Positions 1-24,642 of a DNA stretch of 24,642 bases are shown here, one piece after another. The notes beneath the pieces were generated by a model, which saw only the letters and a list, made by a program, of their open reading frames with translations, was not told the DNA's origin and made no database searches. This DNA comes from Psammoneis japonica (taxonomy: Eukaryota), in assembly GCA_008632985.1 (NCBI GenBank), contig QPGO01000016.1, positions 62,001 to 86,642 on the forward strand, given 5' to 3'. The translations under genes and the position numbers were made by a program. Position 1 is the stretch's first letter, and each line of letters begins with the position of its first letter.

Positions 1-2215
1 CAATGCTCTTCGTTTTCGCAGGTCTCATTGTCGTAGCTGATTCATCCCTCACAAGCGAAGACACGGATTGACCAAGGAGATCAAGCAACCGAAGCTCTGT
101 TGCGCCCTTGACGAAAGTGTCTTCTGATGAGGAGAGACGCTCCAAAGCACTTCTCAAAACTAATTTTGCTCGAGAGAAGTGTCCTGGCGATACAAAGAAT
201 GGCATTCCAACATGAGTGAATCTCTGACGATTGCCATCCATGGTAGAGACTGCTTTCTCTCCATCGTTGGATATAAGCCTAAATACGTCGTACACAATGG
301 GATTGTCTCCGCAATCATTCGCATATTGAATGCTGCCATCATCATAGAAGGAGACGTCCGACAATCGGAAAAACATTGCCTCTCCCAGATCGGCAGCCTG
401 CTTTGCATTACGATCGGAAATTTCATCGTACGTACACAACTGACCGTACTTGGACAAGGCTTGAGCCGCCGGAAGGGTCGCAGTCCTTTCTGCGTGACTA
501 GCATACTCTCTGGCGGAAGCGCTCAGAGGGATGCGTTGGGAGGCATCTCGGAGAACTGCGTCGATTCCCACCGAACCAATGTGGCGGGTGTCGCCGTCTT
601 TTTCTTCCTCAAAGTGCCCGAGAGCATAGGAAAGACGATTCCTTCTCGTATCCAATTCCTCCAGCCGCTCCAGCAGCAGTGCTCGGCCACGAATGCGAGC
701 TTTTGGATTGGTAGCCTCGTCCAACACTGGCTGACAAAGCACTTTGACTCCGGCCAAACGCTCGCGAAGCATACAAAGTTCAGTCTTTGTGGGATGTCCG
801 CCAGAAAGATCTCGAGCGATTTGACGCAACTGCATTTCTCCCCAGTCTAAACGAAAGAGACGGCCCTCGAGTGTGTCTAGATCCACAACGACGGCCTCAG
901 AAACAGCGACTGAGCCATGAAGAACGGTGCCTGAACCGTCGTCAACCGTGACAACAACCTCGTCTGAGGTCGTCGCAAGAGGGGAAATTCCTAGCTCCTT
1001 CTGAAGCCAAATTTCGTATGTAATGCGTCCCTCTGCTTCTAAAGCTGTACTTCTTGGTATTGGTTCTGCGAGAGACAGGCCTTTCGGTAACGAAGTTACG
1101 CGAATAGAACAAAAGCCAGAGCTTTCCAGTAAATCGACCAGTCCTCCCGAAAGCCATTCGCTCAGTACTTCTTGTCGGTTTATGTAGTAGTACCGATCGC
1201 TGAGATATTGGCACTGCGCCGGATTGTGATGTTCACCAAAGGCAGCAATGCAAGTGTAGTGTGCGCGACAATTCAAGCCAGTCAAAAAGGACTGGAAAGC
1301 ATCACCGGCCGCTCGAGCCTTGTCGGTAGCAGCTTGACTGGTGTACCCCATAGGAGCAGCCGATGTGTCTTGACCATCTGTAAACAATAGCGTCGTCACA
1401 TCAACGGCACGGACCGCCACTTCCTTATCATAAAGCTTGTCAACCTCACGTTGAATGCATTTCTGGGCAAGTTCAAACGCCTTTTTAAAGTTGGTAAGTC
1501 CGGTTGGAGAAAATTTGGTCCTTAGTAGGTTCGACAAGTCAAGCACAGTTCGAGGTAGCGTCACCTCGGTTGCATCCGTATTGTAGACAATGGCAATCAG
1601 GGAAACGTACGGGTCTCGTAGAGTCTGATCGGTAAACACTCTTGCAAGTGCATCCACAACGAGAGGCCACTGCTCTCTCATGGAGTACGAGTTATCCAAA
1701 ATGGCTGCGAGTATCTTGCGGCGACGACAACCACGTTTAGCACCTCCAACCTCATCATTGGACGGGAATTGCCCACGAACGGCGCAACGCACAATGGCAC
1801 TGTAGTCTCCACCTCCCTGGCAAAGTGAAACGGTGCAAGGATGTACCTGTTTGTTATCGTTGCTGGAGTTTGCCTTTTGTCCAAACGATGAACGATCCTT
1901 ATCGTCGCGAGTATTATTTCCACCAGAGCTTGTTGTACTTGCGACGGCGGCAGCTCCCGCAGGTGGAGAAGATGTTTGAGAAGAAGCAACAGTAGTAGCT
2001 GAAGAGAGTCGGAGCTTACGAACGAGTCCTCGTGCTACCGCGGCCTGAACGGCGTCTCCATTGGCATCGAGTTGACCCTGTAAATCCCCCGCCTCAATGT
2101 CCTGGAGGTATTCAAGTCGTCCAGAACAACGCGACGCAATCAACTCGTGAAAGCATGGTTCAATATCCAGCTGCAAGAGCAGCTGTTTGAGATCTTTGCT
2201 TATTGTCAAAGTCAT
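1..2215 (-). CDS. von Willebrand factor A (vWA) domain protein with a possible N-terminal SAM-like helical domain; 3' end lies outside the window (>738 aa)
   Basis: Manual translation from ATG at 2215 (MTLTISKDLKQLLLQLDIEP...) stays open to base 1, so the ORF track omits it. MIDAS motif ILDNSYSM (~1679-1700), GLTNFKKAFELA (~1465-1500), TTLLFTDGQD (~1367-1395) and IAAFGEHHN are typical vWA elements. A Ser/Ala/Gly-rich linker precedes the domain. Confidence 0.85.
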   Translation of the reverse strand, partial: MTLTISKDLKQLLLQLDIEPCFHELIASRCSGRLEYLQDIEAGDLQGQLDANGDAVQAAVARGLVRKLRLSSATTVASSQTSSPPAGAAAVASTTSSGGNNTRDDKDRSSFGQKANSSNDNKQVHPCTVSLCQGGGDYSAIVRCAVRGQFPSNDEVGGAKRGCRRRKILAAILDNSYSMREQWPLVVDALARVFTDQTLRDPYVSLIAIVYNTDATEVTLPRTVLDLSNLLRTKFSPTGLTNFKKAFELAQKCIQREVDKLYDKEVAVRAVDVTTLLFTDGQDTSAAPMGYTSQAATDKARAAGDAFQSFLTGLNCRAHYTCIAAFGEHHNPAQCQYLSDRYYYINRQEVLSEWLSGGLVDLLESSGFCSIRVTSLPKGLSLAEPIPRSTALEAEGRITYEIWLQKELGISPLATTSDEVVVTVDDGSGTVLHGSVAVSEAVVVDLDTLEGRLFRLDWGEMQLRQIARDLSGGHPTKTELCMLRERLAGVKVLCQPVLDEATNPKARIRGRALLLERLEELDTRRNRLSYALGHFEEEKDGDTRHIGSVGIDAVLRDASQRIPLSASAREYASHAERTATLPAAQALSKYGQLCTYDEISDRNAKQAADLGEAMFFRLSDVSFYDDGSIQYANDCGDNPIVYDVFRLISNDGEKAVSTMDGNRQRFTHVGMPFFVSPGHFSRAKLVLRSALERLSSSEDTFVKGATELRLLDLLGQSVSSLVRDESATTMRPAKTKSI

Positions 2216-3118
2216 GGTTGTTATTTCGATTGGTTGTAGGTCATTCCCAAGTAGTGCGATTTCGATCGAAACTGTTGTGTTGCATTGAAGTTTGTGAAAG
2301 AAGTGTAAAGTGCGCAAATCGAGATTTCAGACGTGCGTGTGCAAGCATGATTCAGCATTCATTCACCGTAGCACGACTGATGATGGCACATCATGTTGTT
2401 TATTCAGACGCGACTCCACGTTTTCAAACGTGTGTATTCGTCCGCAATGTGGGCACGCTTTTCACACTGCTTCAGCATGCGATGCACGTGGTGTGCTGTG
2501 TCGTGAAAATTCACGCCAATCTCCGACGACTATCCAACGCATCCGCATCCGCCGATTTGTACAAAGAAACATTCTACCATCGACAAGGTGAGTGCAGATA
2601 GACTGATGAAGACTTATTGGACATCCTCAATCGAACATCCTGTGCTCAGTGCAAACTCTCCATTCTGGACAGTGCCAATTTATTGACGGGCGCAGTCGCA
2701 TCCGATGCCATGGCCGCCATCTTGGGAGTCTGCTTTCTGCTTCTGCCTTATTGTGCACGCACACTTCTACCGTATGCTGCCTACACCAATACGGACTACG
2801 GACGTGCGCACTGCTCGTGAATCATTTATCATCCATCCCCCGTGCGGTCCCTGGTCTGTGGAAATGGCGGGTTGCTGCTGAATGACGGGATGGTGCGAGT
2901 CCAACTCTCGATGCAGCTTTCATTGATCAGAGGGCTTAGCACTGGCTCAGCAACAAGAAAAGGATCTTGCCGTCCACATTTCCGGGTCATTCGAAAGAAC
3001 ATAAAAGATGGTTTGCTTGCTGCTCTAGCTGGCTGGCAGCAGCAAAGCAGAAACTGCACCATGACCAAGGACGAGGCAGAATGCTTGCAAGAGGCAACCA
3101 CTGTTGAAAGGAGAAATC

Positions 3119-4765
3119 TCAGCCAATGAAGCATTGCAGTTCATTTTGCTCATTGTGTGAGTGTTTGCCATTGCAGGGCCACACATCGAACTCGATGCTT
3201 GCCTGATGATTCTTGTGGATGGCGTTGCAACATTTGCACACGTCCCCGATGCTGACAACAGAACAGTCGAGGTTTCCATCTCCACAGCCACTGTTCTCAT
3301 GATGCCACAAGTCAAACTTGAGTGGCCCAGCACCGCTTTCCACAAGAGAATCAAAGTCCTGCGGTGACACACAATTTCCATTTTGAAGCTTGGATGCATT
3401 GATGAATGACAGATTGCCACACACTCATCTCGCCATTCCAAGATCCACACTCAGCACCAGAGTGTGCCAGTGAGCAGCCATTGAAACACCACATTCACAT
3501 GGAGCAGCAATGTCCTTTTCTGCTTGGTGTTCCTGATCATGACCATTTGCGAACATTGCCCAGCCACCATCTTGAACACCAATGTCCAATGCTTGGCCAC
3601 AGCAGACAGCGGATCAGCAGCAGCTCCAACATCCCACATGGGAGGATTGATGGGATGGCAGCCATTTTGAGCAAGACCTGCATTCTTGTGTTCCTCACAA
3701 GAAGCTCAAACTGCAGATGTGACTGTTGCAATGGAAGAGTCGCAGTTGGGGAGGACAGGGAGTTCAATGGTGGGATTGGGTGCAGAAGGCTTGGGAGTGT
3801 TGTTGTCATTGCATCCAGGAAAGTCGCAGCATCCCAAGCCAGCTTGCATCCATTTGGCATCACACATGGCAATGAGGGCATTGCAGAATGCTTGACATTC
3901 CATGGAATCTCCAAAGTGGAAGAAGTGGTGGCCATTGATCACATTGCCACTCATCTTGCAAAAGCACACATCATCAAATGCGAGACTTGTTCCTTGAGAG
4001 ATGAATGGGTCCGACTCGGCCTTGCATGTGCCAATCATTGCATTGGCACAGTGTTTTTCTTGGTGCAAAGGAAGATGTTTTGCAACTTCAATGAGGGGTG
4101 CTTCAAATGCAGAGTCAGGATCGGCATCGCGACAACTGGCATCACCAACTGTGAATTCGGTGACCCCGACATCACTGCATTCCTTGTCACAAACCTTGCA
4201 GATGACTTTACCTTTGTTGTCCTTGTCCATGTCAAGACAAGTTTCACCCATGATGTGCTGCATGTCAAAAGACATGTCAAAGCCACAGTTGTGCTGGAGC
4301 AAATCATTGTCCTCCAACGCGTCAATGAGAAGTTGCAAGTCAACAGCCTTGGATTTGGCGGGGCAAGAGAATGCCAAGTCATCAAAGGAGTCAAAACAGG
4401 CTGATGCAGTCACAGTTGTGCTGCAGCTGTCTCCTTCAATGCATCCAAGATGACAAGCCGCGTGTCAAGTCATGTTGGTCATGTTGACTTCAAACTTGGG
4501 ATTGGCAGCGAATGATGGTTCACAAGCTTTTGCACTTCCTTTTGCAAGACCAGTGCACTTGAGACAGGGCTTCTTGGGCTTGAGCACTCAAAAGGTGATC
4601 CAATGGATGGAACATGATGAGAGAGAAGTTTGTTTGTGAGTGAGCTGTGGCAAGCCACTTCATTCTCACTCTTGTCCAAGCATCGTCCAAGGACACTTTC
4701 GTTGATGCCTTGAGCAAAGGAAGCATCATTGTGGTTGCCAACACAAAGATGGTGGAGATCTTCAT
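3119..4765 (-). pseudogene. Decayed gene for a secreted, acidic, Cys-containing protein (family not recognised)
   Basis: Signal-peptide-like start MKISTIFVLATTMMLPLLKA at 4765, followed by collinear minus-strand fragments 3706-4413 and 3119-3424 with protein-like Asp/Glu-rich composition. These are interrupted by stops and frameshifts and contain no Tyr. Confidence 0.45.
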
Positions 4766-6589
4766 GACGCTGCCAAAGTGCTTGTGTTTCATTTCAGTTC
4801 ATGTTTTTTGTGTCATGATAAATGCCTGCAAGTTTGTTGGGTTCTCTTTGCTGTTCTCATTGCATGTTTGCTTCCGCACTTGTTGGTGGCACTCGGCACT
4901 GCTTCACAGTGCTTTGTGGGGTGCGTGGCGACAGCATGCCTTCCTCATGTTTTTTGTTTTTTGTCTCAGCATGCATGATGCATGATGCAAAAAATGGTGA
5001 TGCAGTGGCATCAGCAATCCAATGATGCCACAGAGGGAGAGCACATTTCTGCATGACACATGAGGAAATGGATCTTGGTTTTGATGCACCACATGGAGTG
5101 CCTGAGCACAATTGTCCGGGCAGAGACAAGAATTCTGTGATGAGGTCTCTGAAAGCACTCACTCAATCAAGTCATTCTTGACTGCATGAATGGCATTGGC
5201 GTGTGTCTCCAACAGTTTCATCAAGTTCGCCAAATAAATGACAAGGGTGCAAGAGTCTGTTTTGAAGCTTGGACACTTGCTGTGTCCCTGGAGCACTTTG
5301 CTTCATCCCACCAGCCACCACCACACCAGGTGGCAGTCCTTGGTGCAAGGTTTTGGAGACCTCAAGCACTGCTCAACTTTGTTGAGACTTGAGCAAGGGC
5401 AACTTGAGCAAGGACACCTGCATTGAAACACAATGATGGCTCTCCATGCTGTGAGAATTGCGGCCCCCCACCTTTGTTCATTTTGCTTTGTCAACTCCTT
5501 GCTCATTTTGCAGTTGTTGCCTGCTGGACTCCAAGGTGCAGCAACTTGCATTGCATGCTCAATGAGAAAGCCACTTGAATGATTTTTTCTCTCAGAAGCT
5601 TGAGTCAAAGCCATGCACACCGCTGCTCTAGAGTGGAGCGCAACTCCAAAACCAGTCGATTTGGTGCAGCCATGACCAACAACAACAAAAACTGCTTCAG
5701 TTGCTGGCAGTGTTCCCAGCCGTGTGGTGCAAGATGAGCAGAAGCATTTTAAATGAATTGCTGACATTAACTCAAGATTGGAGTGTGGCCACACCATGCT
5801 CTCCAGTGGCTGAAAAGACTCGCCGATCATTTTGAAGTGTGCCAATTGTCATTGTGGGTTCTGCTGGGTCAAAAAAGAAAAAGTGTGCATGACAGCAGAA
5901 GAAACTGTGGCTGGTGTTGTTGCAATCTGATCTTTGAGCTTGTGCATCTCATGGGTGCATCAACCTTGAAGTTGGATGTGTCCAAGCTCTTTTTGGCCTC
6001 CACTGCTGTGTGGGCACAACTCCACATTGAAACATTGTTCTGATGCTCATTGATTTTCACAACCAATGTTGTCTGCAGCAGTGGCACCTTTCATCTTGAT
6101 TTGTTGTGGCAGGTGCATGCAGAAATTCTTTTTTTTGCATTGGCGCACAGCAGCCAGCAACAAACATTGTCACCCCCCCAAAAAAGGTTCAAGATGAAGC
6201 ATCACAAAAACATCATCAAGATCAGACACAATGACATTTTCTTGCTGAACAGCTTAAATTCTGCCAAGTTCACTTCTGCTCACCTGAGAACTGCTTGCAT
6301 CTCAGAAAAAAAGCTCCCAGTGCAAGAGAATCTGGGATGGAGCCACGCGATTCAGCTCCTGTGTAGAACAGGTTGAGTGAGCTTTTGCATGCACTGTGCC
6401 CGTGGCTGGCAGAGCAAGAGCAGTGGCAAGAGAACTGTGGATTGGCTGAGAGGCAAGAGAGGTGGTCATGAGAAATGGAGTGCTGCATCATTCAGCTTCC
6501 TGTGTTGTCGCTGCTGAGTCACCCAAGAGAGGGAGTTGATGAAACAGCCAAAACACAACTGGCCAACTGGCAGTGTGCATTGCCAAAAC

Positions 6590-8430
6590 AATGCACCAGA
6601 TGAGCCTTGCAACACTCCACCATTGTGTTCCCTGGGTTCCACCAGAGATTGTTGCACTGGTTGGTTGGTTGTGTCATGGTGTTCTTTCTCTGAGGAGACA
6701 GGAGTTTTTCTGCTCTCACTCTGGCACAGCTGAAGTGACTGGCTGGTGAGCACCACTGCATGCTTTTCAAAACTCCACCACCACCCTCAAAGTGTCCTCA
6801 GGTCTTCCCCTGCAGATCTTTGATGCCTTTGGCCTGCAGCTCATGGGTTGGTTGGTTGCATCAAGAGGTGCCCTTTCACTCTGGAGCAGGCAGGAATTTT
6901 CCTCCTCTCATTTTGGCATGAATTGAGTGTCTGGGAGCTGGAGCTGCAACAGACAAGCCTTGCAACACTCCACCACTGTTCTCCAAGTGTTCCCTGGGTT
7001 CCATGGGAGACCTTCAACAATGCCCTCAGAAAGCAGTCATTTGGTTGGTGGGTTGCATCAGGGTGTCCATTCACTCTAGAGCAGTTTGGCAGTTTTTCAG
7101 CTTGTCTCAATCTGGCATGAAGCAAAAGTGACTGGGGGCTGCAACTGCACCAGATGAGCCTTGCTGCACCTGAGCACCAATCTCAAAGTGTTCCCCAGGT
7201 TTCACTGGAGAAATTCAATGCCCTCCAGCCTGCAGTTGTTGGGTTGGTTGGTTGTTGCGCCACCAGGGTGTTCTTTCTCTGAGCAGTTGTTGGGCTTTTC
7301 TGCTCTCACTCTGGCATGCACTCAGTGGTTGGTGGCAGCATGCACACCAGATGGGCCTTGCAACACTCCACTGCCATTCTCACAGTGTTCCCTGGCTTCT
7401 TCTGAAGAGCTTCAGTGCCCTCAGCATGCAGCAGTTGGGTTGGCCAGTTGCATGATGTGTTCTTTTTCTCTGAAGAGTCAGGAATTTCAGCTCTCACCAC
7501 GTCATGGAGTGAGTGACTGGGGGCTGCACTTGCACCAGATGGGCCTTGCAACACTCCACCACCAATCTCACAGTGTTCTCTGAGTTCATGTGAAGACCTT
7601 CAATGCCCTCAGCCTGCAGTTGTTGGGTTGGTTGGCTGCATCAGGGTGTTCTTTCTCTGAAGAGTCAGAAGTTTTTCTGCTCTCACTCTGGCATGACAAC
7701 TGCACCAGATGAGCCTTGCAATGCTCTGCCGCTGTTCTCAAAGTGTTTCCTGGGGTCCACAGGAGACCTTCAATGCCCTCAGTTTGCAGTTGTTGGGTTG
7801 TTTGGTTGCATCAGTGTGACCTGTCACTCTGGACACAGGAGTTTCAGCTCCTCTCACTCTGGCATGGATCAAGCAATTGGTGGCTGCATCAACTGTGCAA
7901 GATCAGCTTTGCAATGCTCGCCACTTTTCTGGGAGCATTCCTTTGGTTCCAAGGGAGCATTTCAATGCCCTCAGCCTGCTTTTGTTGGGTTGTTTGGTTG
8001 CACCAGCATGTCCTTTCACTCTGGAGTTAGGAGCTTCAGCTCTCACTCTGGCATGGACAACTTGGTTGGTGGCTGCAACTGCACCAGATGAGCCTTGCAA
8101 GAGTGCTCCACCTCTTTCTTCAAAGTTTTTTTAGCTCCACAAGAGACCTTTGGTGCCCTCAGTTGCAGTTGTTGGGTTGGCTGGTTGCACAAGGGCCATC
8201 TTTCATTTTGGATGCAGCAGTTTCAGGTCTCACCCTGGTGTGGATCAAGTGATTGGTGGCTGTGACTGCACCAGGCCCAGATGAGCCTTGCAGTGCTCCA
8301 CCACTGTTCTCAAAGTGTTCCCTCAAATCCACAGGAGACCTTCAATGCCCTCAGTCTGCAGTTGTTGGGCTGTTTGGTTGCGTCAGTGTGGTCGTTTCAC
8401 TCTGGAGTCAGGAGCTTCAGCTCTCACTCT
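6590..8430 (+). repeat. Tandem array A: ~10 diverged units of ~170-200 bp
   Basis: Anchor CCAGATGAGCCTTGCAA-like motif recurs near 6597, ~6765 (degenerate), 6950, 7150, 7347, 7535, 7705, 7900, 8084 and 8277. Each is followed by CTCAAAGTGTTCC...CTTCAATGCCCTCAG...GTTGTTGGGTTG...CACTCTGG. Confidence 0.9.
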
Positions 8431-8767
8431 TGCTTGCTCTTTAAGCTGACAAAAGTGCTTTTCTTGGCACTCTCCTCCTCCCATTGGAGGGTCACCATTG
8501 GGCAGAAGACAGACCTCCCACACATCACAGATGGTCAACCTCTTGAAACAAAGCTTCAATGTTCACACACAATGACTAAAATTGCAACATGCTTCTTCCG
8601 TGAGATGACCACCATGACTCAGAAGAAATGGAGCATCCAAACAAAGAAGGGGCAGACCATCTGGGCTCAACCTCAGACACACTCCTCCACCCCTCCTTGA
8701 TTTGGAGACATTCAGTGAAAGACGAGTCTCACCCTGGACATGTGTGCCACCCAAGTCTGGAACAAGT

Positions 8768-9225
8768 CAACAGCATTGCATGCTCAATCCCAAAGAAGCG
8801 TGGCAAGGTTGTCAATTTCCACAATTTGGCAGCACAAGAAAAAATGGACCTTGCAACCAATCAATTTCAACAAGGAGTGTGCAAACGTCTCAGCATGTGG
8901 GCATGAAGAACTTTGCTGATCGCAACAACAAAGGACATGAGAGTGTGAGTCATGTGCCAAATCTTGTCCCATGCCTCCCAAAGGAAACCACTGATGATTT
9001 GGTTGTGGCTCTGCTTGCCATGAAACATGTGCATGGCAGGAGATTGACAAAGGCAATGAGCAGTGCAATGAATGTGCAATCACAATGGGGGCAATGGCAT
9101 CAGCAAAGACAGATTGGTGACAACAGTGTTTGTTTCACCAAAAGTTGAAATTGTGTGGTGAGCAAGATGGCCATTCATTGTTGAGGCTGGCACCATTCTT
9201 TGTGAATGTGCAGAGAGACTGTGCC
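8768..9225 (-). pseudogene. Hypermutated paralog of the 5' region and upstream sequence of the gene at 15282-17518
   Basis: Aligns by eye with 17197-17662. GCTCAATCCCAAAGAAG..GTCAATTTCCACAATTTGG matches GCTCGATCCCAAAGAAG..GTCAATTTCCATAATTCGG, and TTGAAATTGTGTGGTGA is shared. Confidence 0.85.
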
Positions 9226-9493
9226 AACCACAAAAACCCATGGAATGCATTCAGTCACTTGCAGGCTCTGGGCAGAAACAATCAAAGGCCGAGACTGATG
9301 TGAAATGTGTCCACAATGAACATTGGCCATTTCAGAGCAATGTTCTCTGCAGGTGCAATGAAGTTGAGAAATTCAAGGTTGCTTCCACAGAGCCCAGCAT
9401 TCCACTTGCTGCTGTGATGTGTGAAACACTCAAGTGCACTTTCCCATGTCACACTGGGCTGCACTCAAAGTCCAAGCTCATGCATCAATCTGA

Positions 9494-10400
9494 GTGGGGG
9501 AGACTGAGGTTTGTCATGCAGTCAAATCTTGGAACACAGGCACAGACGGGCTTGGCATCGAGGAGTTCCACAAGCTTTTTGGTGCCCACACTTGCTCCTG
9601 GCAGCAGAATCACCTGGTGGAGACCAACAACCTTGGCCATGACACTCTTTTCAGGATCAAGAAAGGCAAGGATGGATCTTTGACATCAAAGCTCATTGTT
9701 TTTCACATTGAGCAGGCTTTTGACTTTGTGGCACAGCACCATGGACACACAGGTGGTCATCTCAAGTTGGGTCACACACTCAATGACATGAAGAAGAAAA
9801 GTTTTGCAATGTCGCAGAGATGCTGGTTTCTCACTTGACCTTTGCCCCACTTGCAGCAGCAAGGTGCAGCCATCTGTGGCAAGAGCTCAAGGTGCTTGAG
9901 TCCCTGCCATGAGATCATGAGCTCCTGGAGTTTCCAAGACCATTTCCAGAATGACTGGATGGGTTGCCAAAAAAACTCACACCAGTTTTGCCATGGGACC
10001 CTGACCCCCCAACCATGAAGTGGCCTCATGGCTTCAAAAGATTGCTGCACGAGATTGATCTGAACTGCAGGTTGCTGAGGAGTTTTTTGCCACACTCACT
10101 CTTTGACCAGCTGCTGCTTTGTCAGCCACACAGACAAGAACAAGAAGGAGTTCACAGCAGAGCAAGTGACCAAAGACATCCAGGAGCTCAGCCCGTGCTT
10201 CAGCACTGTCCAGGTGAGGCACCAGGGGTCATCTGTCAAGCACTCCAACTGTGTCCAGTCAAAAACAGCCATTGCTTTGCCAGTGAAAGAGCAGCACTGC
10301 AATGACATCTCTCAATGCAACAACCGACAAAGGCAAAAATGAGTGCTCATCTTAATTTCATGTGTTTCACATGGAACCCAACGAGCTTCTGACCACTGCT
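9494..10400 (+). mobile_element. Degenerate Ginger/KRBA2-SCAND3-like DDE integrase (transposase) remnant
   Basis: Across frameshifts: HHCC zinc finger (FDFVAQHHGHTGGH ~9720-9760; LDLCPTC ~9834-9854), first catalytic-Asp region SWSFQDHFQNDW (~9923-9958, cf. F(R)D(R)FQxD), MKW/LMASKDCCTRL (cf. KW..KDH.T), second Asp HTDKNKKEFTA (~10127-10160, cf. HTDNGKEF), and RHQGSSVK (~10217-10240, cf. QGSVE). Confidence 0.7.
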
Positions 10401-11414
10401 CCTCTCTCACAAAGCTGTCAACTCACCAAGAATGTTGCTGAGCACTGTGTCATCATTGGAGGGGGCTACAAGAGGAAGATGATCCTGGCAGGTGAGGTGA
10501 CTGAGGAAGAGATTTTGGAGTCCCCAGTGCAGAGGTTGGCCAAGGGCATGTGGCTCCTCCTGGAGCTGCCATCATCAACCATCTGTCTCCTGCTTCAGAG
10601 ACAAGTGCTGTTGATGGGGACTTCAAGGCAGAAGGCCCTGAGCTGCAATCCAACACAGTGGGCCCACATGCTGGTGCAACAAGCAGTGCCCTTGCTTTGT
10701 TCTCTCTAACAAAGCAAAGTGCTGGTGACACATTGACGCCAGCCAACATCAGAAGCTGTGGTGCTGCCAAAAGAGGCCCATGTGTCCAAGGAGATGAAAC
10801 AGGGCAGCAGCATGGCACCACAGACAATTCCTTCAAAGAAGAGGAAAGTGGGCATCGTGGAAAAGCCAACCAAGTCAATGCAAAATAAAGAGCAAAATCC
10901 AATAAGTCCAGAGCTGATGGCAAAGCATGGCAGCAGCAGCAGCAGCCAGCCATTGAATGGAGCCAGAGACGTCTTCGTCTGCCTGCATGCCGCACCGGCA
11001 CCGGGCACCGGTGTCAGTATTTTTTTCGGCATGACGATGACAAAGCTCGCCGGATTGTGATCATCACATTAAGTCGACATTTTGCATTGGCGTGTAAAAA
11101 GGAACCTTTTTCGTGGTACGTTGAGTGTTGTTGATCTTCTCAGAAAAAGCATTTGATTACAACAAAGTATGCTTTTGATCTGCGACGCATACTTCTAATT
11201 CTACTTTTCATCTGTTTTTACGTTGGTTCGCGACGTGGTTTGTACCAATATGAAGTTGGGCTCCATGCGCTCGAACTACACTCCTTCCAATCACACTTCG
11301 GCATCAGGCCTCAGACCGGCGGACGCATTGTGCCTTATAACATGAGATTCAAGATGTTCCGCAATCAAGGTTTCTCGTACAATCATTTGTTCATTCCTGT
11401 TGCGCCATTCGCCA

Positions 11415-11990
11415 ATGGCCTTTTCTTCTAAAGCGTCTTCTGCTAGGACCTTTGTTATTACCGGTGCAACCGATGGGATTGGTCGGCACACGGCAGAAAA
11501 GCTTGCTTCTGATGGGTATGGATTGGTTATACATGGACGCCGCCCGGAGGTTGGTATGGAGGTGGCAGAAAATTTGAAAGACCGTGGTGCCGCCTTTTGT
11601 CACTACATCAACAGCGATTTGGCAGATTTAGCTCAGGTGAATCAGCTAGCAAAAGAGATTGGGAACGTGGTAGACAAGATTGACGTTTTAATCAACAACG
11701 CTGGCGTCTTTGATCCAACGCCGAGGATTTCAAAGCAAGGACACGACATGACGTGGGCTGTCAACGTCATGGCTCCCTATTCGTCTTGACACGAAAACTG
11801 CTGCCACTTGTGGCGCGTGGTACAGACCCGAGAATCATTGCAACATCCTCAATAAGCCAGTCATGGTCAATGCCAAGTCTGGATGATTTGTTTGCAAAGG
11901 ATAAAGAATTGGAATCCACGGGATACTCGGCGCACAGAGCCTACAGTCATTCGAAATTGGGGGAATTTGATGTTTATCTGTGAAGCTGTC
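11415..11990 (+). pseudogene. Short-chain dehydrogenase/reductase (retinol-dehydrogenase-like), frameshifted and 3'-truncated
   Basis: TGATDGIG Rossmann motif, DLADL, DVLINNAGV, AVNVMAP. A 2-nt insertion at ~11778 shifts the frame; it then continues FVLTRKLLP...TSSISQ...catalytic YSHSK. Further 1-nt indels occur near 11960-11978 and homology is lost after ~11990. Confidence 0.85.
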
Positions 11991-12641
11991 GGTGCTCAGC
12001 TTGTCTATTTGGAGAGCTTCTCTGTCCACAAAAGGACTTGCAGTGGGCCCATCACAATATCCGGATGCTTATGATGTACGGGTAACTCTCGTATTCCCTG
12101 AAGAGAGCATGGTTTGTGTCTGTGGGTTGTTTCTGACTCCGTTCCCTATACAGGGACATCGCTTGTACATGGAGGACAACTATTTGCTACGTCATGGGTG
12201 GCTTCTCCTCCAGCCTAGTCACCATATTATTGTCCAAAGCCTTTTTGTCAGTTTCTTTGACTCTGACAGCAAGGATGGTTACGGTCGCAGTAGGGCCTGT
12301 TACATGCAATTGTATGTTCACCGTTGAACTCATTGTGGTGCTGTAATGGAAGATGATACAGTGACGGCGTCTCCTGAAAACATTCGTCCTCCAGAAGAAG
12401 TCGTTGAGCGCCGCATTCAAGCAAATGGAGTGGACGAAGAGTAAGAGAAAGATGACGAGAAGACAAATAGCGTGCCGTCGTTTTGGAAATGCTGGGGGAC
12501 TTGCCATCTGCCGGTGAGTATGCACTTGCAAGCGTTCGACCACATTGCTTCTTGTTCTCTTATATGCACTGTGTTTCGTTTTATTGATATCAAAGCTCCT
12601 GAGAAAATTGTGTTTGTTTGCAAATATTGAATCCAGCGACG

Positions 12642-15281: not shown

Positions 15282-17518
15282 CTAGCGGCGACTCATGATC
15301 CTTGCGGATCTACGCACGACACGCCCAGTGTTGGACGAAAGAAAGAGACTGCCAGTGGCTTGACGGAGCCTAGGCGAGCGTCTCAATGGGACAGGATGGA
15401 CTTTTTCCTCCTTGTTTCTCACAACTGTAGCAAAAGGAACAACACCCTCCTCCACCACTGGATCATCGTCGGCAGCCATATCCAGAACGTCCAATGCATC
15501 GTCAGGCTCCTCGGCTACTACTCCAAGAACGACTTCCTCTTCATCGTATGCAGTAATTGCAGGATCGTTTATGGTGTCAGCAACAGCAGGTTCCTCAATG
15601 ACAGGAGCGGGAATGATTGCCTCTCCGTCGATTGTTGCCTCGTTCATATCAACTGCAGGATCGTCCAAGGCTTCATCGTCAGGAACCATATCCAGAACGT
15701 CCAACGCATCGTCAGGCTCCTCGGCTACTACTCCAAGAACGACTTCCTCTTCATCGTATGCAGTAATTGCAGGATCGTTTATGGTGTCAGCAACAGCAGG
15801 TTCCTCAATGACAGGAGCGGGAATGATTGCCTCTCCGTCGATTGTTGCCTCGTTCATATCAACTGCAGGATCGTCCAAGGCTTCATCGTCAGGAACCATA
15901 TCCAGAACGTCCAACGCATCGTCAGGCTCCTCGGCTACTACTCCAAGAACGACTTCCTCTTCATCGTATGCAGTAATTGCAGGATCGTTTATGGTGTCAG
16001 CAACAGCAGGTTCCTCAATGACAGGAGCGGGAATGATTGCCTCTCCGTCAATTGTTGCATCGTTCATATCCACTGCAGGATCGTCCAAGGCTTCATCGTC
16101 AGCAGCCATATCCAGAACGTCCAACGCAGGCTCCTCGGCTACTACTCCAAGAACGACTTCCTCTTCATCGTATGCAGTAATTGCAGGATCGTTTATGGTG
16201 TCAGCAACAGCAGGTTCCTCAACGACAGGAGCGGGAATGATTGCCTCTCCGTCGATTGTTGCATCGTTCATATCCACTGCAGGATCGTCCAAGGCTTCAA
16301 CGACAGGCTCCTCTTCTACAGCAACAGGAACGCCCATCTCCGCATCGTCTGGTGCGTCGTCAACAGTCACAGTAGGTTCGTTCAAGGCTTCCCAAGGCTC
16401 TTCAACAACATCAGGAACTACTTCCTCCACAGCATTTAGATTGTTGTCCGTGTCCTCAGCCGGTTCCATATCCGAAATATCCGAGGCATCGTCAGCAATG
16501 GGGTTAATGTCCGTAGCCTCAGCGGGTCCAACGGCCGCTGTAGTCCGTACCCAGCCATGCCAATGATCACACCAAAGATCAGAGTCCCAGTAATGAATAC
16601 TTTCTTCCTGACCCGCATCAAATTCGAGCATCGCCACAGCCAACTGCTCATCATTCAACACGGGTATCACACGGGTGTAACGTGCGCGTCGAAGAACGCG
16701 TTTGGCAGGCACACGGGTTGGATTGGGAGGAGCGTCACCAACGCAATGGTTCTTAAGCATCATTTGGTCAGGTTTCCACCTGACATGCCTTTCTACTGGA
16801 ACAGCAAGAGCCTCGGCCGGTTCCATGGCCGCTTGAGTCCGCACCCAGCCACGCCAGTGATCATACCTTGGATCCGCATGACACTCACGAATGTATCGGT
16901 CTTGTTTCCGGTCAAACTCAACCAGCGCTGCGGCCAATCTCTGATCATTCAATACGGGTATCATATGGGTGTAGCGAGGGATTCGAAGAATTCTTGGAGC
17001 AGTCACGCCGGTTGGATTGGGAGGAGCGTCACCAACGTAATGGTTCTTTAGCATCATTCGGTCGGGTCTCCATTTAACAAGACCGCCACCAAATAGTTTT
17101 GCTTCAAGAGCAGCAGCCACGGGAACAGAAACCGCAAGGGAACGTAGAGGGCATTATACATGGTCCATACAACCACTGCAACCGCGAGAGTAGCCGCAAC
17201 CGCATCGCACGCTCGATCCCAAAGAAGAGTCGACAGGTCGTCAATTTCCATAATTCGGCGGTACAAGAAATAGACAATCAACTTCAACGAGGAGTATATG
17301 AAGATCACAGCATATAAAGCGAGGAGAGCTGTACAGACTCCTACAGCGAAGGACGCCAGTTCTTCAATCATGCATCGGATCCCGTCCATTGCAACGCTCG
17401 AGAATATCCAAAGTTCCCAAAGAAACCCGCTGACGATTCGGCCGTGGTTCTGCTTACCGTGAAATACGCGTAGCAGAAGATTCATAAAGAGAACGAGTAG
17501 TGCAATATATGCAATCAT
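15282..17518 (-). CDS. Probable single frameshifted gene: N-terminal hydrophobic/TM region (17054-17518), duplicated ~98-aa domain, four acidic 70-aa repeats and a basic RRSxR tail (15282-17120)
   Basis: The 154-aa hydrophobic ORF overlaps the 612-aa ORF. The latter has only a GTG start with a TAA just upstream (~17155), so one indel would fuse them. C-terminus is LRRSPRL...VRRSARI. Family not recognised. Confidence 0.55.
15463..16299 (-). repeat. Coding tandem repeat, 4 x 210 bp, near-identical
   Basis: TCCAGAACGTCCAA recurs at 15481, 15691, 15901 and 16111. The last copy on + has a 6-bp deletion. The frame is preserved (70-aa acidic unit). Confidence 0.95.
16515..17077 (-). repeat. Older internal duplication, 2 x ~294 bp
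   Basis: GATTGGGAGGAGCGTCACCAACG occurs at 16721 and 17015. The protein repeats W(R/K)PD.MMLKNH.VGDAPPNPT...IPVLND...DHW.GWVRT. Confidence 0.9.
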
Positions 17519-17767
17519 AATGGGGGTAGTGGTATCAATAAAGATAGATTGGTAATAACAGTGTTGGTTTCAATGCAAGCAAAACTTGAAATTGTGTGGT
17601 GATCGTGACGGTCGCTCGTTGTTGTGGCTGGTAGCATTCGTGAATGCGTAGAAACTGTACTGGAAAAGCCCGTAGAGAAGCCGACCGTCAGTCACGCTTT
17701 TCAAGTTTTGACGGGAAGTTGCGGCACGTTTGCATTCGGTTGCTCGTAGGCTCTACACTGTAGCTAG

Positions 17768-19719
17768 CAGCAGGAAGAAACGAAAATCAGAGGTCATCAA
17801 AGCATTCCAAGAGATGCCTGTGGCCCATGGAAATGTTCTGAAACACAGGGAGAGGCAACACACCGGCCTTGAGCGCCTTGGAGCTGATGTCTTTGGCCAC
17901 ATTGGCAAGAACCCATCCCATGCACAAAGTCAAAGGTGTGCTGCAACAAGAGGCAAGGTGTGCTGGGCTTGATGCACTTGTCTCCCACCACCTCAGCAAA
18001 CAACCCAGGTCATCTGCACACAACTCTGCCTTTGATGCAGCTGGCACTTGCTGTCAAAGTGGCTGTGCAGAAATGTGCAAAATGTGGGTGAGACTCATTG
18101 CCAAGTTTGAGCCCACTGCGGCAAGAGAGGGAGACCCTTGCAAGTCAGAACTTTGGAGGTCTCATGACCTGTCCACCCCCTGAGCTGTGGGGCAACAACA
18201 AAGTTTAGAGTGCCAGTGATTTGTTTTTGTGCATGGATCAGACCCAAGCATTTGACACGGATCAAGTGATTGGAGGCTGCAAGTGCAGCAGATGAGCCTT
18301 GCAATGCTCCGCCACTGCTCTCAAAGTGTTCCTTGGGTTGTTCCAAGGCAAACTTCATCGCCCCAAGCCCTCAGTTGTTCAGTTGGTTGGGCGGTTGCAT
18401 CAAGGCCCTCTTTTGCTTGGACTCAGCAGCTTCGGGTCTCACTCACTCTGGAGTGGGTTGAGTGACTCTGGCGGCTGCAACTGCACCAGACAAGCCCTTG
18501 CAACACTCCACTGCCATTCTCAAAGTGTTCCCTGGTGCCCACCAGAGTCCCTCAATGCCCTCAGCCTGCTTTTGTTGTGTTTTTTGGTTGCATCAGTGTG
18601 TCCATTCACACTCTGGAGTCAGGAGTTTCAGCTTTTTCACTCTGTCGTGGATCAAGTGATTGGTGGTTGTGACTGCACCAGGCCCAGATGAGCCTTGCAA
18701 TGCTCCGCCACCATTCTCAAAGTGTTCCCTGGGGTCCACAGGAGACCTTCAATGCCCTCAGTTTGCAGTTGTTGGGTTGTTTGGTTGCATCAGTGTGTCC
18801 GCTGACTCTGGAGTCAGGAGCTTCAGTGCTCACTCTGGCGCGGTGGTGGATCAAGTGATTGGTGGCTGCAACTGCACCAGACGAGCCTTGCAATGCTCTG
18901 CCACTGTTCTCAAAGTGTTCCCTTGGGTCCACAGGAGACCTTCTCAATGCCCTCAGTCTGCATCTGTTGGGTTGTTTGGCTGCATCAGTGTGCCCTCTGA
19001 CTCTGGAGTCAGGAGCCCCCCAGAGCTCTCTCTCTCTCTCTGGCATGGATCAAGTGATTGGAGGCTGCAAACACAGCAGATGAGCCTTCCAATGCTCCGC
19101 CACTGTTCTCAAAGCATTCCTTTGGTTCCAAGAGAGCACTTCAATGCCCCCAGCCCTCAGTTGTTTGGCTGGTTGCGCCAGGCGCCAGGGTTCTTTCTCA
19201 CTTTGGACTCAGCAGCTTCAGGTCTCACTCTGTCATGGATCAAGTGATTGGTGGCTGTGACTGCACCAGGCTCAGATGAGCCTTGCAATGCTCCGCCACT
19301 GTTCTCAAACTGTTCCCTGGGGTCCACAGGAGACCTTCAATGCCCTCAGTTTGCAGCTGCTGGGTTGTTTGGTTGCACCAGCCACCAGCCACCAGCCAGT
19401 GTGTCAATTGACTCTGGAGTCAGGAGTTTCAGCTCTCACCACTCTGGCACGGATCAAGTGATTGGAGGCTGCAAATGCAGCAGATGAGCCTTGCAATGCT
19501 CTGCTGCTGTTCTCAAAGTGTTCCTTGGGTTGTTCCAAGGGAGCACTTCAATGCCGCTGTGTTCCAAGAAGGAATCAGGAACCTTGAAGGGGGGGGGTTG
19601 GAGGCGGAGAAGAACGATTTCTTGTGTCATCATCCGAACAAACGCATCAACACATCTCACTTCGACAAACTGCTGTTGCCCACAGCGTCCACTCTTCTCT
19701 CTTCTTTTGCAAGCTCCCT
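17768..19719. other. TpA-depleted hypermutated domain 2
   Basis: Only one TA seen (TTAG at 18206) in ~1.95 kb, whereas both flanks contain normal TA. CpG is reduced but partly retained. Confidence 0.9.
18258..19555 (+). repeat. Tandem array B: ~7 units of ~190-215 bp, same family and orientation as array A
   Basis: GATCAAGTGATTGG(A/T)GG anchor at ~18260, (18460 degenerate), 18650, 18849, 19048, 19238 and 19452. Each is followed by a GATGAGCCTTGCAATGCTCC...TCAAAGTGTTCC-like motif. Confidence 0.92.
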
Positions 19720-19732
19720 TTACCATTAAAAA

Positions 19733-20143
19733 ATGAGTCTCAATAACATATCCAGCTCTCTCATTACCCCCACGCTTGCGTCCTTTGCAGCGTGCCAAGT
19801 TACTGGGTTTCTTTGGTACGGACCCTTGTTTGGAAAGCTCTGGATGAAAAAGATGAAAGAGGATGATCCTACGTTTGATGTTCACGGCTCGACTCCAGTG
19901 CTTGGAGCCGCTGTCACGTGGTTGACGTCGTCTGCCATGTTTTCATGTTTGGTATCCATGACGGGTGCTGCCAAAGGTGCGGAACTTGTTTCGCTCGCGG
20001 GAACGGCGTGGCTGGGCTTTACCGTGCCCGGTCACGTCTTTGCCGTCCTATTTGAAGGCCGAAACGTGACTGTCAATGTTTTAGGCTCAGCCTACATTCT
20101 TACCTCCCATCTTATAATGGCTGGTGTTCATTATTTGCTTTAG
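19733..20143 (+). CDS. DUF1761-like small multi-pass membrane protein (136 aa)
   Basis: GFLWYGPLFGKLWMK motif typical of DUF1761, four hydrophobic segments, ATG preceded by AAAAA, normal dinucleotide content. Confidence 0.75.
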   Translation: MSLNNISSSLITPTLASFAACQVTGFLWYGPLFGKLWMKKMKEDDPTFDVHGSTPVLGAAVTWLTSSAMFSCLVSMTGAAKGAELVSLAGTAWLGFTVPGHVFAVLFEGRNVTVNVLGSAYILTSHLIMAGVHYLL

Positions 20144-23098: not shown

Positions 23099-23142
23099 CT
23101 ACAGTACGACTGTAGAGTGCAGCCCTCTAAAGTAGGGCTGCA
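23099..23142. repeat. Two adjacent perfect inverted repeats
   Basis: CTACAGT-acg-ACTGTAG (23099-23115) and TGCAGCCCT-ctaaagt-AGGGCTGCA (23118-23142). Confidence 0.7.
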
Positions 23143-23311: not shown

Positions 23312-24394
23312 TTAAAAGACACCGATTCGAAAGGCGAGCCTGATTTGTTTCAAAGCTGTGACCCAACTTCCAATGGCAGGTTCGGGCACCTCAGCAGCGT
23401 TCTCGGGTTCTTCCCAGGGTTTCAAAACTGGCAGAGAATCTTGCAGAACGTTCATCAAACGCATTGACGTGTCAAACACTTTCTTTCCCTAACATTTTGC
23501 CTTCCACTCAATCGCAGAGCGACTGTCAGACAGAATTGGGTTCAGAAACGAAACCTTTTCGAAAAGAAGGTTCGTCTGAGTCTTCGCTGGCGTAGTCAAG
23601 CGTGTCGACAATTCCAAAACTCTCTTCCCCCAATGTCCAACGCTCGATTTGATCTCAGAGAGATGGCCAGACAAGATTGGGTTCCGAAAAAACAGCAAAA
23701 AATTGTCGCGTTCCTGAAGAACGAGTGCCTGAGTCTGGATTTGCGTGATGACGTTGTTCGAAATTTCGTCTGCAAGTTTCCGCCAAAGCTGAAACGCCGC
23801 CGACTTGACATCCGAAAAGATGCTGTGCGTGTCCGACAAGACGGCCAACTGGATCTCCAAAAATGTCGTGAACGTGTCTTGGAGCACGACTGACTTGGTC
23901 TCAACCGTGCTGTTGGGTGTGGTGTTGTGAAAGAGTTGCTGGAGGCTGCTGTTGGAGTCGCCATTGTTGTCCTGAACAAAATGTTCACAGACACAATGCT
24001 CGTTGGCGTCTTCTGCTGGTGCAATCATGGGCATGGCATTGCGCAGGAGGCCTTGGACGCGACTCGGAGACTTGTCGCCATCGTCAAAATGAGCGCAAAA
24101 GCTGGAAATGAGGATGGCGTTTTCGAAGGGAACAGTGTTGGGAGCGCCATTGCTGGTGATGTCATGGCAGCAGCTGGAGGTGGTGTCAACATCTGAGCAA
24201 CGGGTGTTGTCCAAAAACTTGCACGGGAGCTCTTGGTCAATCATGGCGATGCTGTCGGTCACCACGGTTGCCTCGATCGACAAGGCGCTGACGCCGCGCT
24301 TTGCCGCATCAACAAACGAGGCAGAGAGAGGGCTGATGATGACACCAGTGCTCATGGCGGCAATGACAGCAAGGACAAAGTTCATGATTTTCAT
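23312..24394 (-). pseudogene. Tyr-free gene relic with a signal-peptide-like N-terminus and one internal stop
   Basis: Starts MKIMNFVLAVIAAMSTGVII at 24394. Internal repeat NPILSGHLSEIKSSVGHWGKRV versus NPILSDSRSAIEWKAKC*GKKV shows that the TAG at 23489-23491 sits at a Trp position. The frame continues to TAA at 23312-23314. The 377-aa ORF has no Tyr. Confidence 0.55.
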
Positions 24395-24622
24395 GATGGA
24401 CTGTGAGCTGACGAGCAATTCAGAAATTGTGAGAGCACTCAAACAAGAAGAGATTCTGTCTGCAAGGGAGGTGCCGTGGCACAAGACACACAGAAATCTG
24501 CGTGGCGTGGGCCGTTTCTCCATTGCATTTGAGTTGGAAGAAAGTTTCGCGATGGTTGTTTTGTCGCAGATGGTGCACCTGTCGAGCTTGGATGATCGTG
24601 CTGTTCCACGCAGCTGGCACAT
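23595..24622. other. TpA-free, CpG-retaining domain 3
   Basis: No TA seen in ~1.03 kb, and only two more back to 23315, while CG dinucleotides are abundant. Confidence 0.9.
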
Positions 24623-24642
24623 TAATTCTAGAGTGCGAGGCT

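Follow-up and report, generated by a model that had tools for sequence, protein, structure and literature searches.

Until 2026, when a preprint on one chlorarachniophyte appeared, no targeted hypermutation of nuclear DNA on the adenine side (A:T>G:C) was known. In this preprint, Mettrop et al. (bioRxiv 10.64898/2026.01.13.699255) describe how DNA that giant viruses and virophages left integrated in the genome of Bigelowiella natans is hypermutated specifically at TpA. Two such viral regions had 231 mutations in mutation-accumulation lines sequenced with Illumina; 230 of them were A>G or T>C, all of these 230 were located at TpA, and the rate in the viral regions was around 1000-fold over the background. 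Furthermore, the genome contained 124 clusters of 1-kb windows depleted in TpA and enriched in CpA+TpG (bioRxiv 10.64898/2026.01.13.699255). The initial annotation of the DNA studied here had proposed a process of this kind and knew of no description of it; actually, the preprint reports exactly this signature.

Here "the window" means the whole stretch of DNA that was analysed, 24.6 kb. As far as sequences can be compared, its TpA signature matches the hypermutation of B. natans: A>G or T>C changes at TpA give TpG or CpA within bounded regions, and TpA depletion goes together with CpA+TpG enrichment in clustered windows, where the affected coding sequences of B. natans are enriched for transposon-type domains. 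There are also differences. B. natans is a rhizarian, whereas the window belongs to a diatom-like stramenopile (its genes look diatom-like). The depletion is saturated here, with TA observed/expected ratios of 0.00-0.03 against a Rho of 0.45 in an active giant-virus region of B. natans. The targets of B. natans are viral, whereas we found no viral or transposon hallmark here, and a satellite and a host-type gene relic are among the targets. Unlike in B. natans, a loss of CpG is superimposed in two of the three islands of the window. Finally, the rate was measured in B. natans, whereas here the process is seen through its footprint. In the openly accessible literature we found no report of TpA hypermutation in a diatom.

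The footprint also resembles RIP, in that a whole domain is densely hypermutated by transitions and loses its coding capacity, with a dinucleotide context as the signature. Nevertheless, RIP changes C>T at CpA and so creates TpA, whereas here the opposite happened, TA being removed and CA/TG gained. RIP is triggered by duplication, whereas here unconverted multi-copy and tandem repeats adjoin the converted DNA, and RIP creates stop codons, which the TpA process seen here cannot do. Regarding the deaminase defences (APOBEC3, ADAR hyper-editing, amphioxus ADAT2), they share with the window the clustered transitions in unwanted nucleic acid and the short context. The A>G outcome fits adenine deamination, unlike the C>T changes of APOBEC. 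ADARs, which to our knowledge are known from animals only, act on RNA, whereas the conversion here is in DNA. The amphioxus BjADAT2 is the one ADAT2 with a measured DNA-editing context; its preferred sites on DNA are 5'GAA when it edits A and 5'TCG when it edits C, rather than TpA (PMC10354150).

TA-free islands of the window

Three TA-free islands are a real feature of the window. Their limits were taken from the positions of TA and CG, and they are sharp to within tens of bases:

3027..10970, no strand: domain 1, a TA-free, CG-poor island of 7,944 bp
17766..19720, no strand: domain 2, a TA-free, CG-poor spacer between the multi-copy gene (minus) and ORF 19733-20143 (plus)
19556-19720 (165 bp): right edge zone of domain 2, TA-free with CG kept (0 TA, 6 CG)
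23594..24622, no strand: domain 3, without TA but normal in CG, part of a longer minus-strand open frame

With the density outside the domains (39.4 TA per kb) as the expectation, domain 1 has 18 TA against 313 expected (binomial P ~4e-110), domain 2 has 1 against 77 (P ~5e-33) and domain 3 has 0 against 41 (P ~1e-18). Domain 1 includes TA-free runs of 1,776 and 1,183 bp, and all the 14 longest TA-free runs of the 24.6-kb window are inside the three domains. Thus, the count of about 18 TA in about 8 kb with kb-long stretches at zero, which the initial annotation had given, was right, and so was the recurrence that it had seen at 17768-19719 and 23595-24622. The TA observed/expected ratio is 0.03, 0.01 and 0.00 in domains 1, 2 and 3, respectively, against 0.59 outside.

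The loss of CG, by comparison, had been understated, although in domains 1 and 2 it equals that of TA: domain 1 has 71 CG against 466 expected (observed/expected 0.15) and domain 2 has 28 against 115 (0.20). Domain 3 is not depleted in CG (62 against 60 expected). The observed/expected ratios of TG and CA are 1.4-1.9 in the domains against ~1.2 outside, and in domain 1 they reach 1.73 for TG and 1.91 for CA. The number of pyrimidine-purine steps per base is near equal in domain 1 and outside (0.238 and 0.247), whereas the share of TG+CA among these steps is 95% in domain 1 against 60% outside. By this mass balance, the lost shares of TA and CG reappear as TG+CA. The G+C content is ~49% in domain and non-domain DNA alike. 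Among the surviving TA, 9 of the 19 in domains are in a W-TA-W context, against 144 of 541 outside (P=0.06).

CpG loss is a second process, separable from TpA loss, because domain 3 and the edge zone 19556-19720 are TA-free and yet have kept their CG. It resembles the CpG decay of 5mC-methylated transposons, in which CG changes to TG or CA on both strands in non-genic DNA, but such decay accounts for the CG half of the pattern only. In the diatom Phaeodactylum, transposon methylation depends on DNMT5a (PMC9998398).

Outside the domains, ten non-ORF spacers and gaps have TA observed/expected ratios of 0.37-0.80 and CG ratios of 0.79-1.29; a 1.4-kb spacer (13900-15281) reaches 0.80 for TA. Within the 24.6 kb of the window the conversion is therefore confined to bounded regions, as in the B. 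natans type. The neighbours of domain 1 are divergent, namely a VWA-domain ORF (2-2317, minus) and pieces of a coatomer-beta ORF from ~11400 (plus). When the six domain ends were aligned allowing for transitions, no convincing shared or inverted termini appeared, with one pair at z=6.2 among 30 comparisons of only 20 shuffles each. A repeat search gave only short, chance-like matches, and no element boundary was recognised.

As a background control we took the helicase of the window, collected 80 metagenome loci surrounding its homologues, and scanned these loci in 1,756 windows of 1 kb. In the best 50 of these 80 loci no window had a TA observed/expected ratio below 0.15; the loci are short, gene-centred contigs and are no evidence against the process in other diatoms. 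A first metagenome scan with the helicase had given no match, and the 80 loci came from a second one with alignment A1.

Conversion of a gene relic and of satellites

Domain 1 contains a relic of a gene whose intact paralogue lies in the same window, 8 kb apart:

8768..9258, minus strand: relic, in converted form, of the gene at 15282-17569 (its membrane-span-like 5' part), aligned to 17197-17695
17197..17695, minus strand: unconverted reference paralogue with normal TA and CG, part of the multi-copy gene
17057-17569 and 15282-17120, minus strand: ORF pieces of the multi-copy gene

The two copies are identical in 351 of 524 aligned columns. All the 53 TA and CG dinucleotides of the normal copy are altered in the relic. 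The 24 TA sites became TG in 11 cases, CA in 11 and something else in 2; the 29 CG sites became TG in 11 cases, CA in 15 and something else in 3, so that 26 of the 29 follow CG>TG/CA on both strands. None of either kind was kept. The remaining mismatches (61 of 115) are spread over other positions, and there are also indels. Outside TpA and CpG we counted 17 A>G + T>C, 16 C>T + G>A and 28 transversions. An enrichment of A>G at TpA over other contexts had been set beforehand as a test by the initial annotation, and these counts agree with it, elsewhere the 17 standing against 16 C>T + G>A. The both-strand A:T>G:C transitions at TpA that it had postulated are equally borne out by the 11 TG and 11 CA. 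Judging from this comparison, the TA loss is caused by mutation. As TAY>TGY/CAY predicts, 6 of the 7 aligned Tyr of the paralogue are Cys or His in the relic. The 22 TG and CA outcomes form 8 runs along the relic, a weak hint of clustering.

Two satellites, homologous to each other, are also inside the islands:

6592..8436, no strand: satellite of ~190-bp units in domain 1, ~10 monomers
18253..19555, no strand: satellite of ~197-bp units in domain 2, with a higher-order period of 392, ~7 monomers

In the satellite of domain 1 the CG observed/expected ratio falls to 0.03-0.06. Among the 17 monomers there are 12 dinucleotide columns with both TG and CA, each in at least 2 monomers, whereas the seven other double-transition pairs gave 0-5 such columns. 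At these TG/CA-polymorphic columns some monomers retain CG and one retains TA. Because the monomers differ in this way and hold residual CG and TA, the conversion took place in situ, after the amplification of the satellite.

Taken together, the paralogue comparison, the TG/CA polymorphism of the satellites and the normal TA of the non-ORF spacers outside support a strand-symmetric transition process at TpA (TpA>TpG/CpA). The ancestral state is given by the one paralogue pair of 0.5 kb; for the other ~10.4 kb of the domains, composition and satellite polymorphism point to the same conversion. The initial annotation had seen the pattern in transposase, satellite, gene relic and intergenic DNA in all frames, and this holds for satellite, gene relic and anonymous DNA; the transposase has no Pfam match.

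The initial annotation took repeats and duplicated genes as the target, which the window does not bear out. A 96%-identical tandem repeat of 210-bp units (15463-16307) has kept TA and CG, and so has a high-depth multi-copy paralogue (16649-17982), over which the summed contig depth of a public run, X1, is more than 1,000 against a baseline of ~63. Duplication alone therefore has no triggering effect.

Proposed mechanism and competing explanations

The islands were probably made by a local, targeted TpA>TpG/CpA hypermutation at the DNA level, likely an adenine deamination, which is guided by the domain and not by the repeat. TpA in these three nuclear DNA islands of a diatom-like stramenopile was converted to TpG or CpA until saturation, that is, A>G on either strand. 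The process reached a satellite-filled intergenic spacer, a larger island made up of satellite, relic and anonymous DNA, and part of a multi-copy open frame. It would be aimed at the domain, probably through its chromatin or silencing state, rather than at repetition, and it may serve in defence. The likeliest chemistry would be that an enzyme deaminates the adenine of 5'-TA in DNA, with inosine then pairing as G. A deaminase of the ADAT2/TadA type in this role would be a nuclear enzyme with an HxE-PCxxC site. A second process, apparently slower or narrower, has stripped CpG (CpG>TpG/CpA) from two of the islands, most simply by deamination of 5-methylcytosine in DNA that was presumably methylated.

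The same targeted process might use another chemistry, in which an enzyme modifies the thymine of TpA, for example one of TET/JBP type that oxidises it to 5-hydroxymethyl- or 5-formyluracil; T>C would follow when the modified base pairs with G or is wrongly repaired. Since TA reads identically on both strands, the sequence does not distinguish A>G from T>C chemistry: T>C on one strand equals A>G on the other, and both would leave the 11 TG and 11 CA of the relic. 5-Formyluracil is known to favour T>C transitions, dinoflagellates have the hydroxymethyluracil of their DNA enriched at TpA, and the measured DNA context of an ADAT2 is not TpA. Nevertheless, neither the window nor the literature consulted gives a sign of such modifications in diatoms, and the authors of the B. 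natans preprint prefer adenine deamination, itself a hypothesis. We therefore consider the thymine chemistry unlikely.

A general TA>TG/CA and CG>TG/CA bias with no targeting, under which the islands would be old neutral DNA and genes would keep their TA by selection, suits the intergenic position of the islands and their lack of a recognisable conserved gene. It is very improbable, because the ten non-ORF spacers and gaps keep TA and CG as well, the islands begin and end within tens of bases, and domain 3 is within an open frame that runs beyond both its ends.

Modified TA and CG in silenced DNA could also have been miscalled as TG/CA during sequencing or assembly. The sole matching run, X1 (mean word depth ~63), has no recorded library type and is possibly from the assembly's own sample, thus not independent of the source. 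Its k-mer contigs, however, reproduce the sequence: one of 10,251 nt agrees with 4643-6619 without a single difference, over 1,977 bp of domain 1; another (10677-11169) crosses the right edge of domain 1 with 0 differences; and a third (19491-21102) crosses the right edge of domain 2 with 0 substitutions and 1 gap. A symmetric modification read as TG or CA depending on the strand would give a bubble at each site instead of a long clean contig, which disfavours an artefact. Furthermore, every site is fixed as TG or CA, the differences between monomers of one satellite are fixed, the relic has 61 other substitutions and indels besides, and B. natans gave the same signature from Illumina reads. 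An artefact is thus most improbable. No RNA run was listed as matching 2500-11500. Contigs of X2, a run of unrecorded kind from the same sample as X1, lie over the flanking genes and are absent at 4643-10645, 17983-19316 and 23986-24642; this absence is no proof, and we draw no conclusion on silencing from it.

Hardly more credible is a native composition, either as foreign or viral DNA that was already poor in TA and CG or through selection against TA (a TA-cutting nuclease, TA-targeting transposons). Many viruses under-use CpG and UpA, and the open frames of the islands are all orphans. Against this, the relic, whose paralogue in the window bears TA and CG, was converted site by site, the satellites are polymorphic for TG and CA with CG or TA retained in some monomers, and TA ratios of 0.00-0.03 in all frames and in non-coding satellite are far past known selective avoidance.

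Finally, A-to-I editing of transcripts by an ADAR-like enzyme, followed by reverse transcription and integration, would agree with the 5' U preference of ADAR (bioRxiv 10.64898/2026.01.13.699255), but it can practically be dismissed, since tandem satellites were converted in place and differently from monomer to monomer, the strands were hit equally, the domains mix unrelated sequence types with no recognisable transcript or retro-element boundary at their ends, and the animal-only occurrence of ADARs also counts against it.

Under the preferred reading, a targeted hypermutation at TpA, a saturated footprint in a diatom-like genome would mean that the process is no peculiarity of a single species. 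It would then also occur in a group of major ecological weight that offers transformable models and maps of methylome and chromatin, so that the enzyme, the mark that singles out a domain for editing and the relation to cytosine methylation would become testable. An enzyme editing A at TpA in chromosomal DNA would be of interest for base-editing work. The process could be ancient and extinct. A wider proposal, possible and for the moment doubtful, is that TpA editing of DNA is an old and widespread genome surveillance of SAR (stramenopiles and rhizarians), aimed by chromatin or small RNA and not at repeats, and faster and wider than the decay of methylated CpG.

Open frames inside the islands

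TA is part of two of the three stop codons, and for this reason alone such islands hold long open frames, a point worth taking into account in annotation. Two sets of frames were examined:

3025..4464, minus strand: Cys/His-rich open frames of 252, 133 and 141 aa, with one of 332 aa on the plus strand
23489 to beyond 24640, minus strand: domain 3 open frame, extending past both ends of domain 3

Among 112 stop-to-stop ORFs of at least 60 aa that overlap the domains, 111 had no Pfam match at E<=0.01, and the lone remaining one, to TMEM71, was stray and sub-threshold. The transposase of the initial annotation was thus not found among these ORFs. In Pfam searches with 12, 20 and 112 ORFs, none of the three domains yielded a protein domain of viral or transposon type, so that a targeting of foreign DNA is unproven in this case.

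The frames at 3025-4464 are possibly a converted former gene; Pfam, a word search and the ESM Atlas gave no relative. The length of the 332-aa frame is borderline (P=0.027) against 300 second-order (trinucleotide-preserving) Markov simulations. The domain 3 frame, of which 343 aa are inside the domain, is longer than in all 300 simulations, and its stretch belongs to a multi-copy family, with a summed depth of ~1,309 in X1. A word search, full HMMER against 1.84 billion representatives and the ESM Atlas gave no homologue for it, and a single-sequence AlphaFold2 model (mean pLDDT 34) was too poor for use.

As TA>TG/CA never makes a stop from a sense codon, converted frames stay open, lose all their Tyr and have many residues changed. 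For the same reason, under the wider proposal, editing may yield open and radically recoded Tyr-free frames, some of which may persist, either as new orphan genes or as elements that editing can no longer affect. The multi-copy domain 3 frame would be an example: none of its 377 aa is Tyr, whereas Tyr makes up 1.6-2.6% of four other ORFs in the window.

Three domains almost free of TA

The TA dinucleotide has nearly disappeared from three domains of the window (D1, D2 and D3), which were located by a 500-bp scan together with a listing of all the TA and CG positions. The expected counts were taken from the density outside the domains.

TA and CG counts in the three TA-depleted domains
D1, 3027-10970: TA 18 observed, 313 expected; CG 71 observed, 466 expected
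D2, 17766-19720: TA 1 observed, 77 expected; CG 28 observed, 115 expected
D3, 23594-24622: TA 0 observed, 41 expected; CG 62 observed, 60 expected

These counts confirm the TA depletion described in the initial annotation (binomial P from ~1e-18 to 4e-110), and the 14 longest TA-free runs of the window all lie inside D1-D3. TG and CA each reached 1.4-1.9 times their expectation in the domains, while G+C stayed unshifted at around 49%. Pyrimidine-purine steps had equal density in D1 (0.238 per base) and outside it (0.247), whereas the TG+CA share of these steps was 95% in D1 and 60% outside. A constant density with a shifted split is what would follow if a single transition had turned each TA and CG into TG or CA. 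In D3 the TA share, which is 16% of these steps outside the domains, was wholly shifted to TG+CA and the CG share was unchanged.

According to the list of TA and CG positions, the domain edges are sharp. Furthermore, ten spacers or gaps without ORFs outside the domains had TA observed/expected ratios of 0.37-0.80 and CG ratios of 0.79-1.29, which rules out a bias that affects neutral DNA throughout the genome. As a background control we used 80 metagenome loci around helicase homologues (508 kb, 1,756 windows of 1 kb), whose contigs are short and gene-centred and therefore do not serve as a survey of such islands in other diatoms. None of the 50 best-matching loci had any window with a TA ratio below 0.15. 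Among the remaining loci, two that are GC-rich and match weakly had 3 windows at 0.11-0.13. Thus, TA-free kilobases are not ordinary background.

As read from the list, 15 of the 19 TA that survive in D1 and D2 are in a TTA or TAA context. Ordinary C>T or G>A changes at CAA/TTG could have made these TA anew, or their context could be a poorer substrate; the excess of W-TA-W among the surviving sites was not significant (P=0.06).

The initial annotation had proposed repeats and duplicated genes as the target, but repetition is not the trigger, because two repeated sequences of the window are unconverted. The first one is the following:

15463-16307, minus strand: 210-bp tandem repeat in 4 copies, within ORF 15282-17120, encoding an acidic protein repeat rich in Asp, Glu, Val and Ala

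The copies of this repeat show 96% identity. The second is the paralogue region 16649-17982, where the summed depth of the contigs of X1, a public sequencing run, was >1,000 against a baseline of ~63, with the count restricted to contigs of at least 90% similarity. Since ~10% of the positions would be altered by full conversion itself, many near-identical unconverted copies of this region must exist.

Direction of the change and its separation from CG loss

In the window self-comparison, a gene relic of D1 (8768-9258) matched 17197-17695 as its paralogue, a copy with normal composition that makes up the 5' part of a gene on the minus strand. In their pairwise alignment 351 of the 524 columns were identical. 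The relic retains none of the 24 TA present in the normal copy (11 became TG, 11 CA, 1 AA and 1 GA) and none of the 29 CG (11 became TG, 15 CA and 3 others). The other mismatches (61 of 115) comprised 17 A>G or T>C, 16 C>T or G>A and 28 transversions, which means that A>G changes are enriched at TpA over other contexts and show no excess elsewhere. Where tyrosines of the normal copy align, the relic has Cys or His in six of seven cases, in agreement with the prediction TAY>TGY/CAY. Comparison of this pair thus shows that the pattern is caused by mutation, in the direction from TA and CG to TG and CA. The reverse direction, in which a process like RIP (repeat-induced point mutation) would have created TA in the normal copy, was rejected since this copy has the composition of the other genes and spacers of the window, its frame is open and RIP makes no CG.

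D1 and D2 also have in common a satellite with units of ~190-197 bp. We aligned 18 pieces and counted 17 monomers, leaving out 18097-18289, which showed no clear monomer. There were 12 dinucleotide columns with both TG and CA, each in at least 2 monomers, against 0-5 such mixed columns for the seven other double-transition pairs. At the mixed TG/CA columns some monomers retain CG and one retains TA. This mixture implies that conversion took place after amplification, each site going either way.

The losses of TA and CG are separable. TA is absent from D3, where CG is normal; at the right end of D2, the final 165 bp (19556-19720) contain 0 TA and 6 CG, and the left edge of D1 (3027-3500) has 0 TA and 10 CG (CG observed/expected 0.35). 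TA-free stretches that retain CG suggest that the TA process is faster or further-reaching than the CpG process. The TA-free zone of D2 stops 13 bp short of where ORF 19733-20143 starts with its ATG and ~165 bp beyond the CG-poor zone, and therefore the promoter-proximal DNA of this ORF is TA-free but has CpGs. The CpG process is most simply the decay of 5-methylcytosine. Diatom transposons are reported to be methylated via DNMT5a (PMC9998398), and the D1 and D2 islands may be methylated too.

A sequencing artefact was checked by comparing contigs of X1 over 4643-24642. This run, with a library not on record and a kind that we guessed to be DNA, contained 89% of the words sampled from 2500-11500; it is possibly the assembly's own sample, and its agreement is not a check independent of the source sample. 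An X1 contig of 10,251 nt (depth 63) matched 4643-6619 with 0 differences, a second one was exact over 10677-11169, crossing the right edge of D1, and a third one covered 19491-21102, crossing the right edge of D2, with one gap. If a symmetric base modification were read as TG on one strand and CA on the other, every site would show a bubble and long clean word-based contigs would not be expected. Inherited sequence is also indicated by the monomers, whose TG/CA differences are fixed, and by the relic, which has ordinary substitutions and indels.

Relation to known systems and possible chemistry

The initial annotation read the pattern as an undescribed 'reverse-RIP' defence system. The kind of process was largely right, with a putative role in defence; nevertheless, it is neither repeat-triggered nor unprecedented, since a 2026 preprint on the alga Bigelowiella natans, the sole precedent in the literature searched, already describes what the annotation called 'reverse RIP' (bioRxiv 10.64898/2026.01.13.699255). 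Illumina data of mutation-accumulation lines showed 302 nuclear single-nucleotide mutations there. Two integrated viral regions account for 231 of them, and 230 of these are A>G or T>C; all the GC-biased ones were at TpA and the rate was ~1000-fold over background. Very probably our window records a real and local process of the same kind as in B. natans, a further instance of a very recently described TpA hypermutation. The case adds a second, distant lineage, saturated conversion, targets without viral hallmark, a superimposed yet separable CpG loss and independence from repetition as a trigger. The unconverted repeats are also a clear difference from RIP, and, unlike a RIPped gene, a converted one stays open. 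The literature searched, outside the subscription journals, contained no report of TpA hypermutation in diatoms or other stramenopiles.

The sequence shows A:T>G:C at 5'-TA-3', on one strand or the other, and does not fix the chemistry. Deamination of adenine in DNA would yield A>G at TpA, and we tentatively regard it as the most likely route, with a probability somewhat short of even, because it is the simplest one to A>G and is also the hypothesis of the preprint (bioRxiv 10.64898/2026.01.13.699255). However, DNA contexts have been measured for a single ADAT2, which is reported to favour GAA and TCG, not TpA (PMC10354150). A route through thymine modification is a real rival, although an unlikely one.

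Contents of the islands and neighbouring genes

Apart from the satellite and the gene relic, nothing in the islands was recognisable. The 'transposase' announced in D1 could not be confirmed, as the 112 stop-to-stop ORFs of at least 60 aa gave no real Pfam match. Long open frames are expected in the islands because TAA and TAG cannot occur. From the genetic code, TA>TG/CA never makes a stop from a sense codon, the sole route being TAA>TGA, already a stop; therefore a converted gene remains open though heavily recoded. The D3 frame has 343 aa within the domain, or 377 aa when counted from its first ATG, is open beyond the window end, contains no tyrosine and was longer than those of all 300 second-order (trinucleotide-preserving) Markov simulations. 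Word search, full HMMER search and Atlas found no homologue of it, and its single-sequence fold was useless. The frame extends past both TA-free ends, where TTA and CTA codons occur at 24623-24631 and further TA close to the stop, so the converted tract (23594-24622) lies within a longer frame. Loose X1 contig ends at 23613 suggest the edge of a repeated unit near the TA-free edge.

The repeat gene (ORF 15282-17120) is without a Pfam domain, has an older internal duplication (16515-16778 versus 16809-17072, 74% identity) and, as its contig depth suggests, belongs to a multi-copy family. In the antisense frame of its 210-bp repeat (15060-16439, plus strand) there were weak Pfam matches (MTaX1, zinc ribbons) with no stretch passing alone; a methylase-associated gene was rejected here, since the matches look like low-complexity noise.

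The window is eukaryotic and encodes the following:

2-2317, minus strand: VWA-domain ORF
13108-13899: coatomer-beta C-terminal region
20831-22783: DEAD-box helicase with SAP domain

The best database relatives of the helicase showed 62-63% identity. Among the matches listed and read, those named by organism were all diatoms (Cylindrotheca, Nitzschia, Amphora, Staurosira, Pseudo-nitzschia and Chaetoceros) and therefore we take the source to be a diatom-like stramenopile. B. natans itself was rejected as the source, since its public proteins would have given matches near 100%.

Contigs of X2, a run of a kind not on record from the same sample as X1, skip 68-145 bases at 12005-12151, 12082-12151 and 12512-12586 in the coatomer-beta region, which could be introns or allelic indels. 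The skips at 12657-12726, 22092-22298 and 22955-23036 are common to the X1 and X2 contigs.
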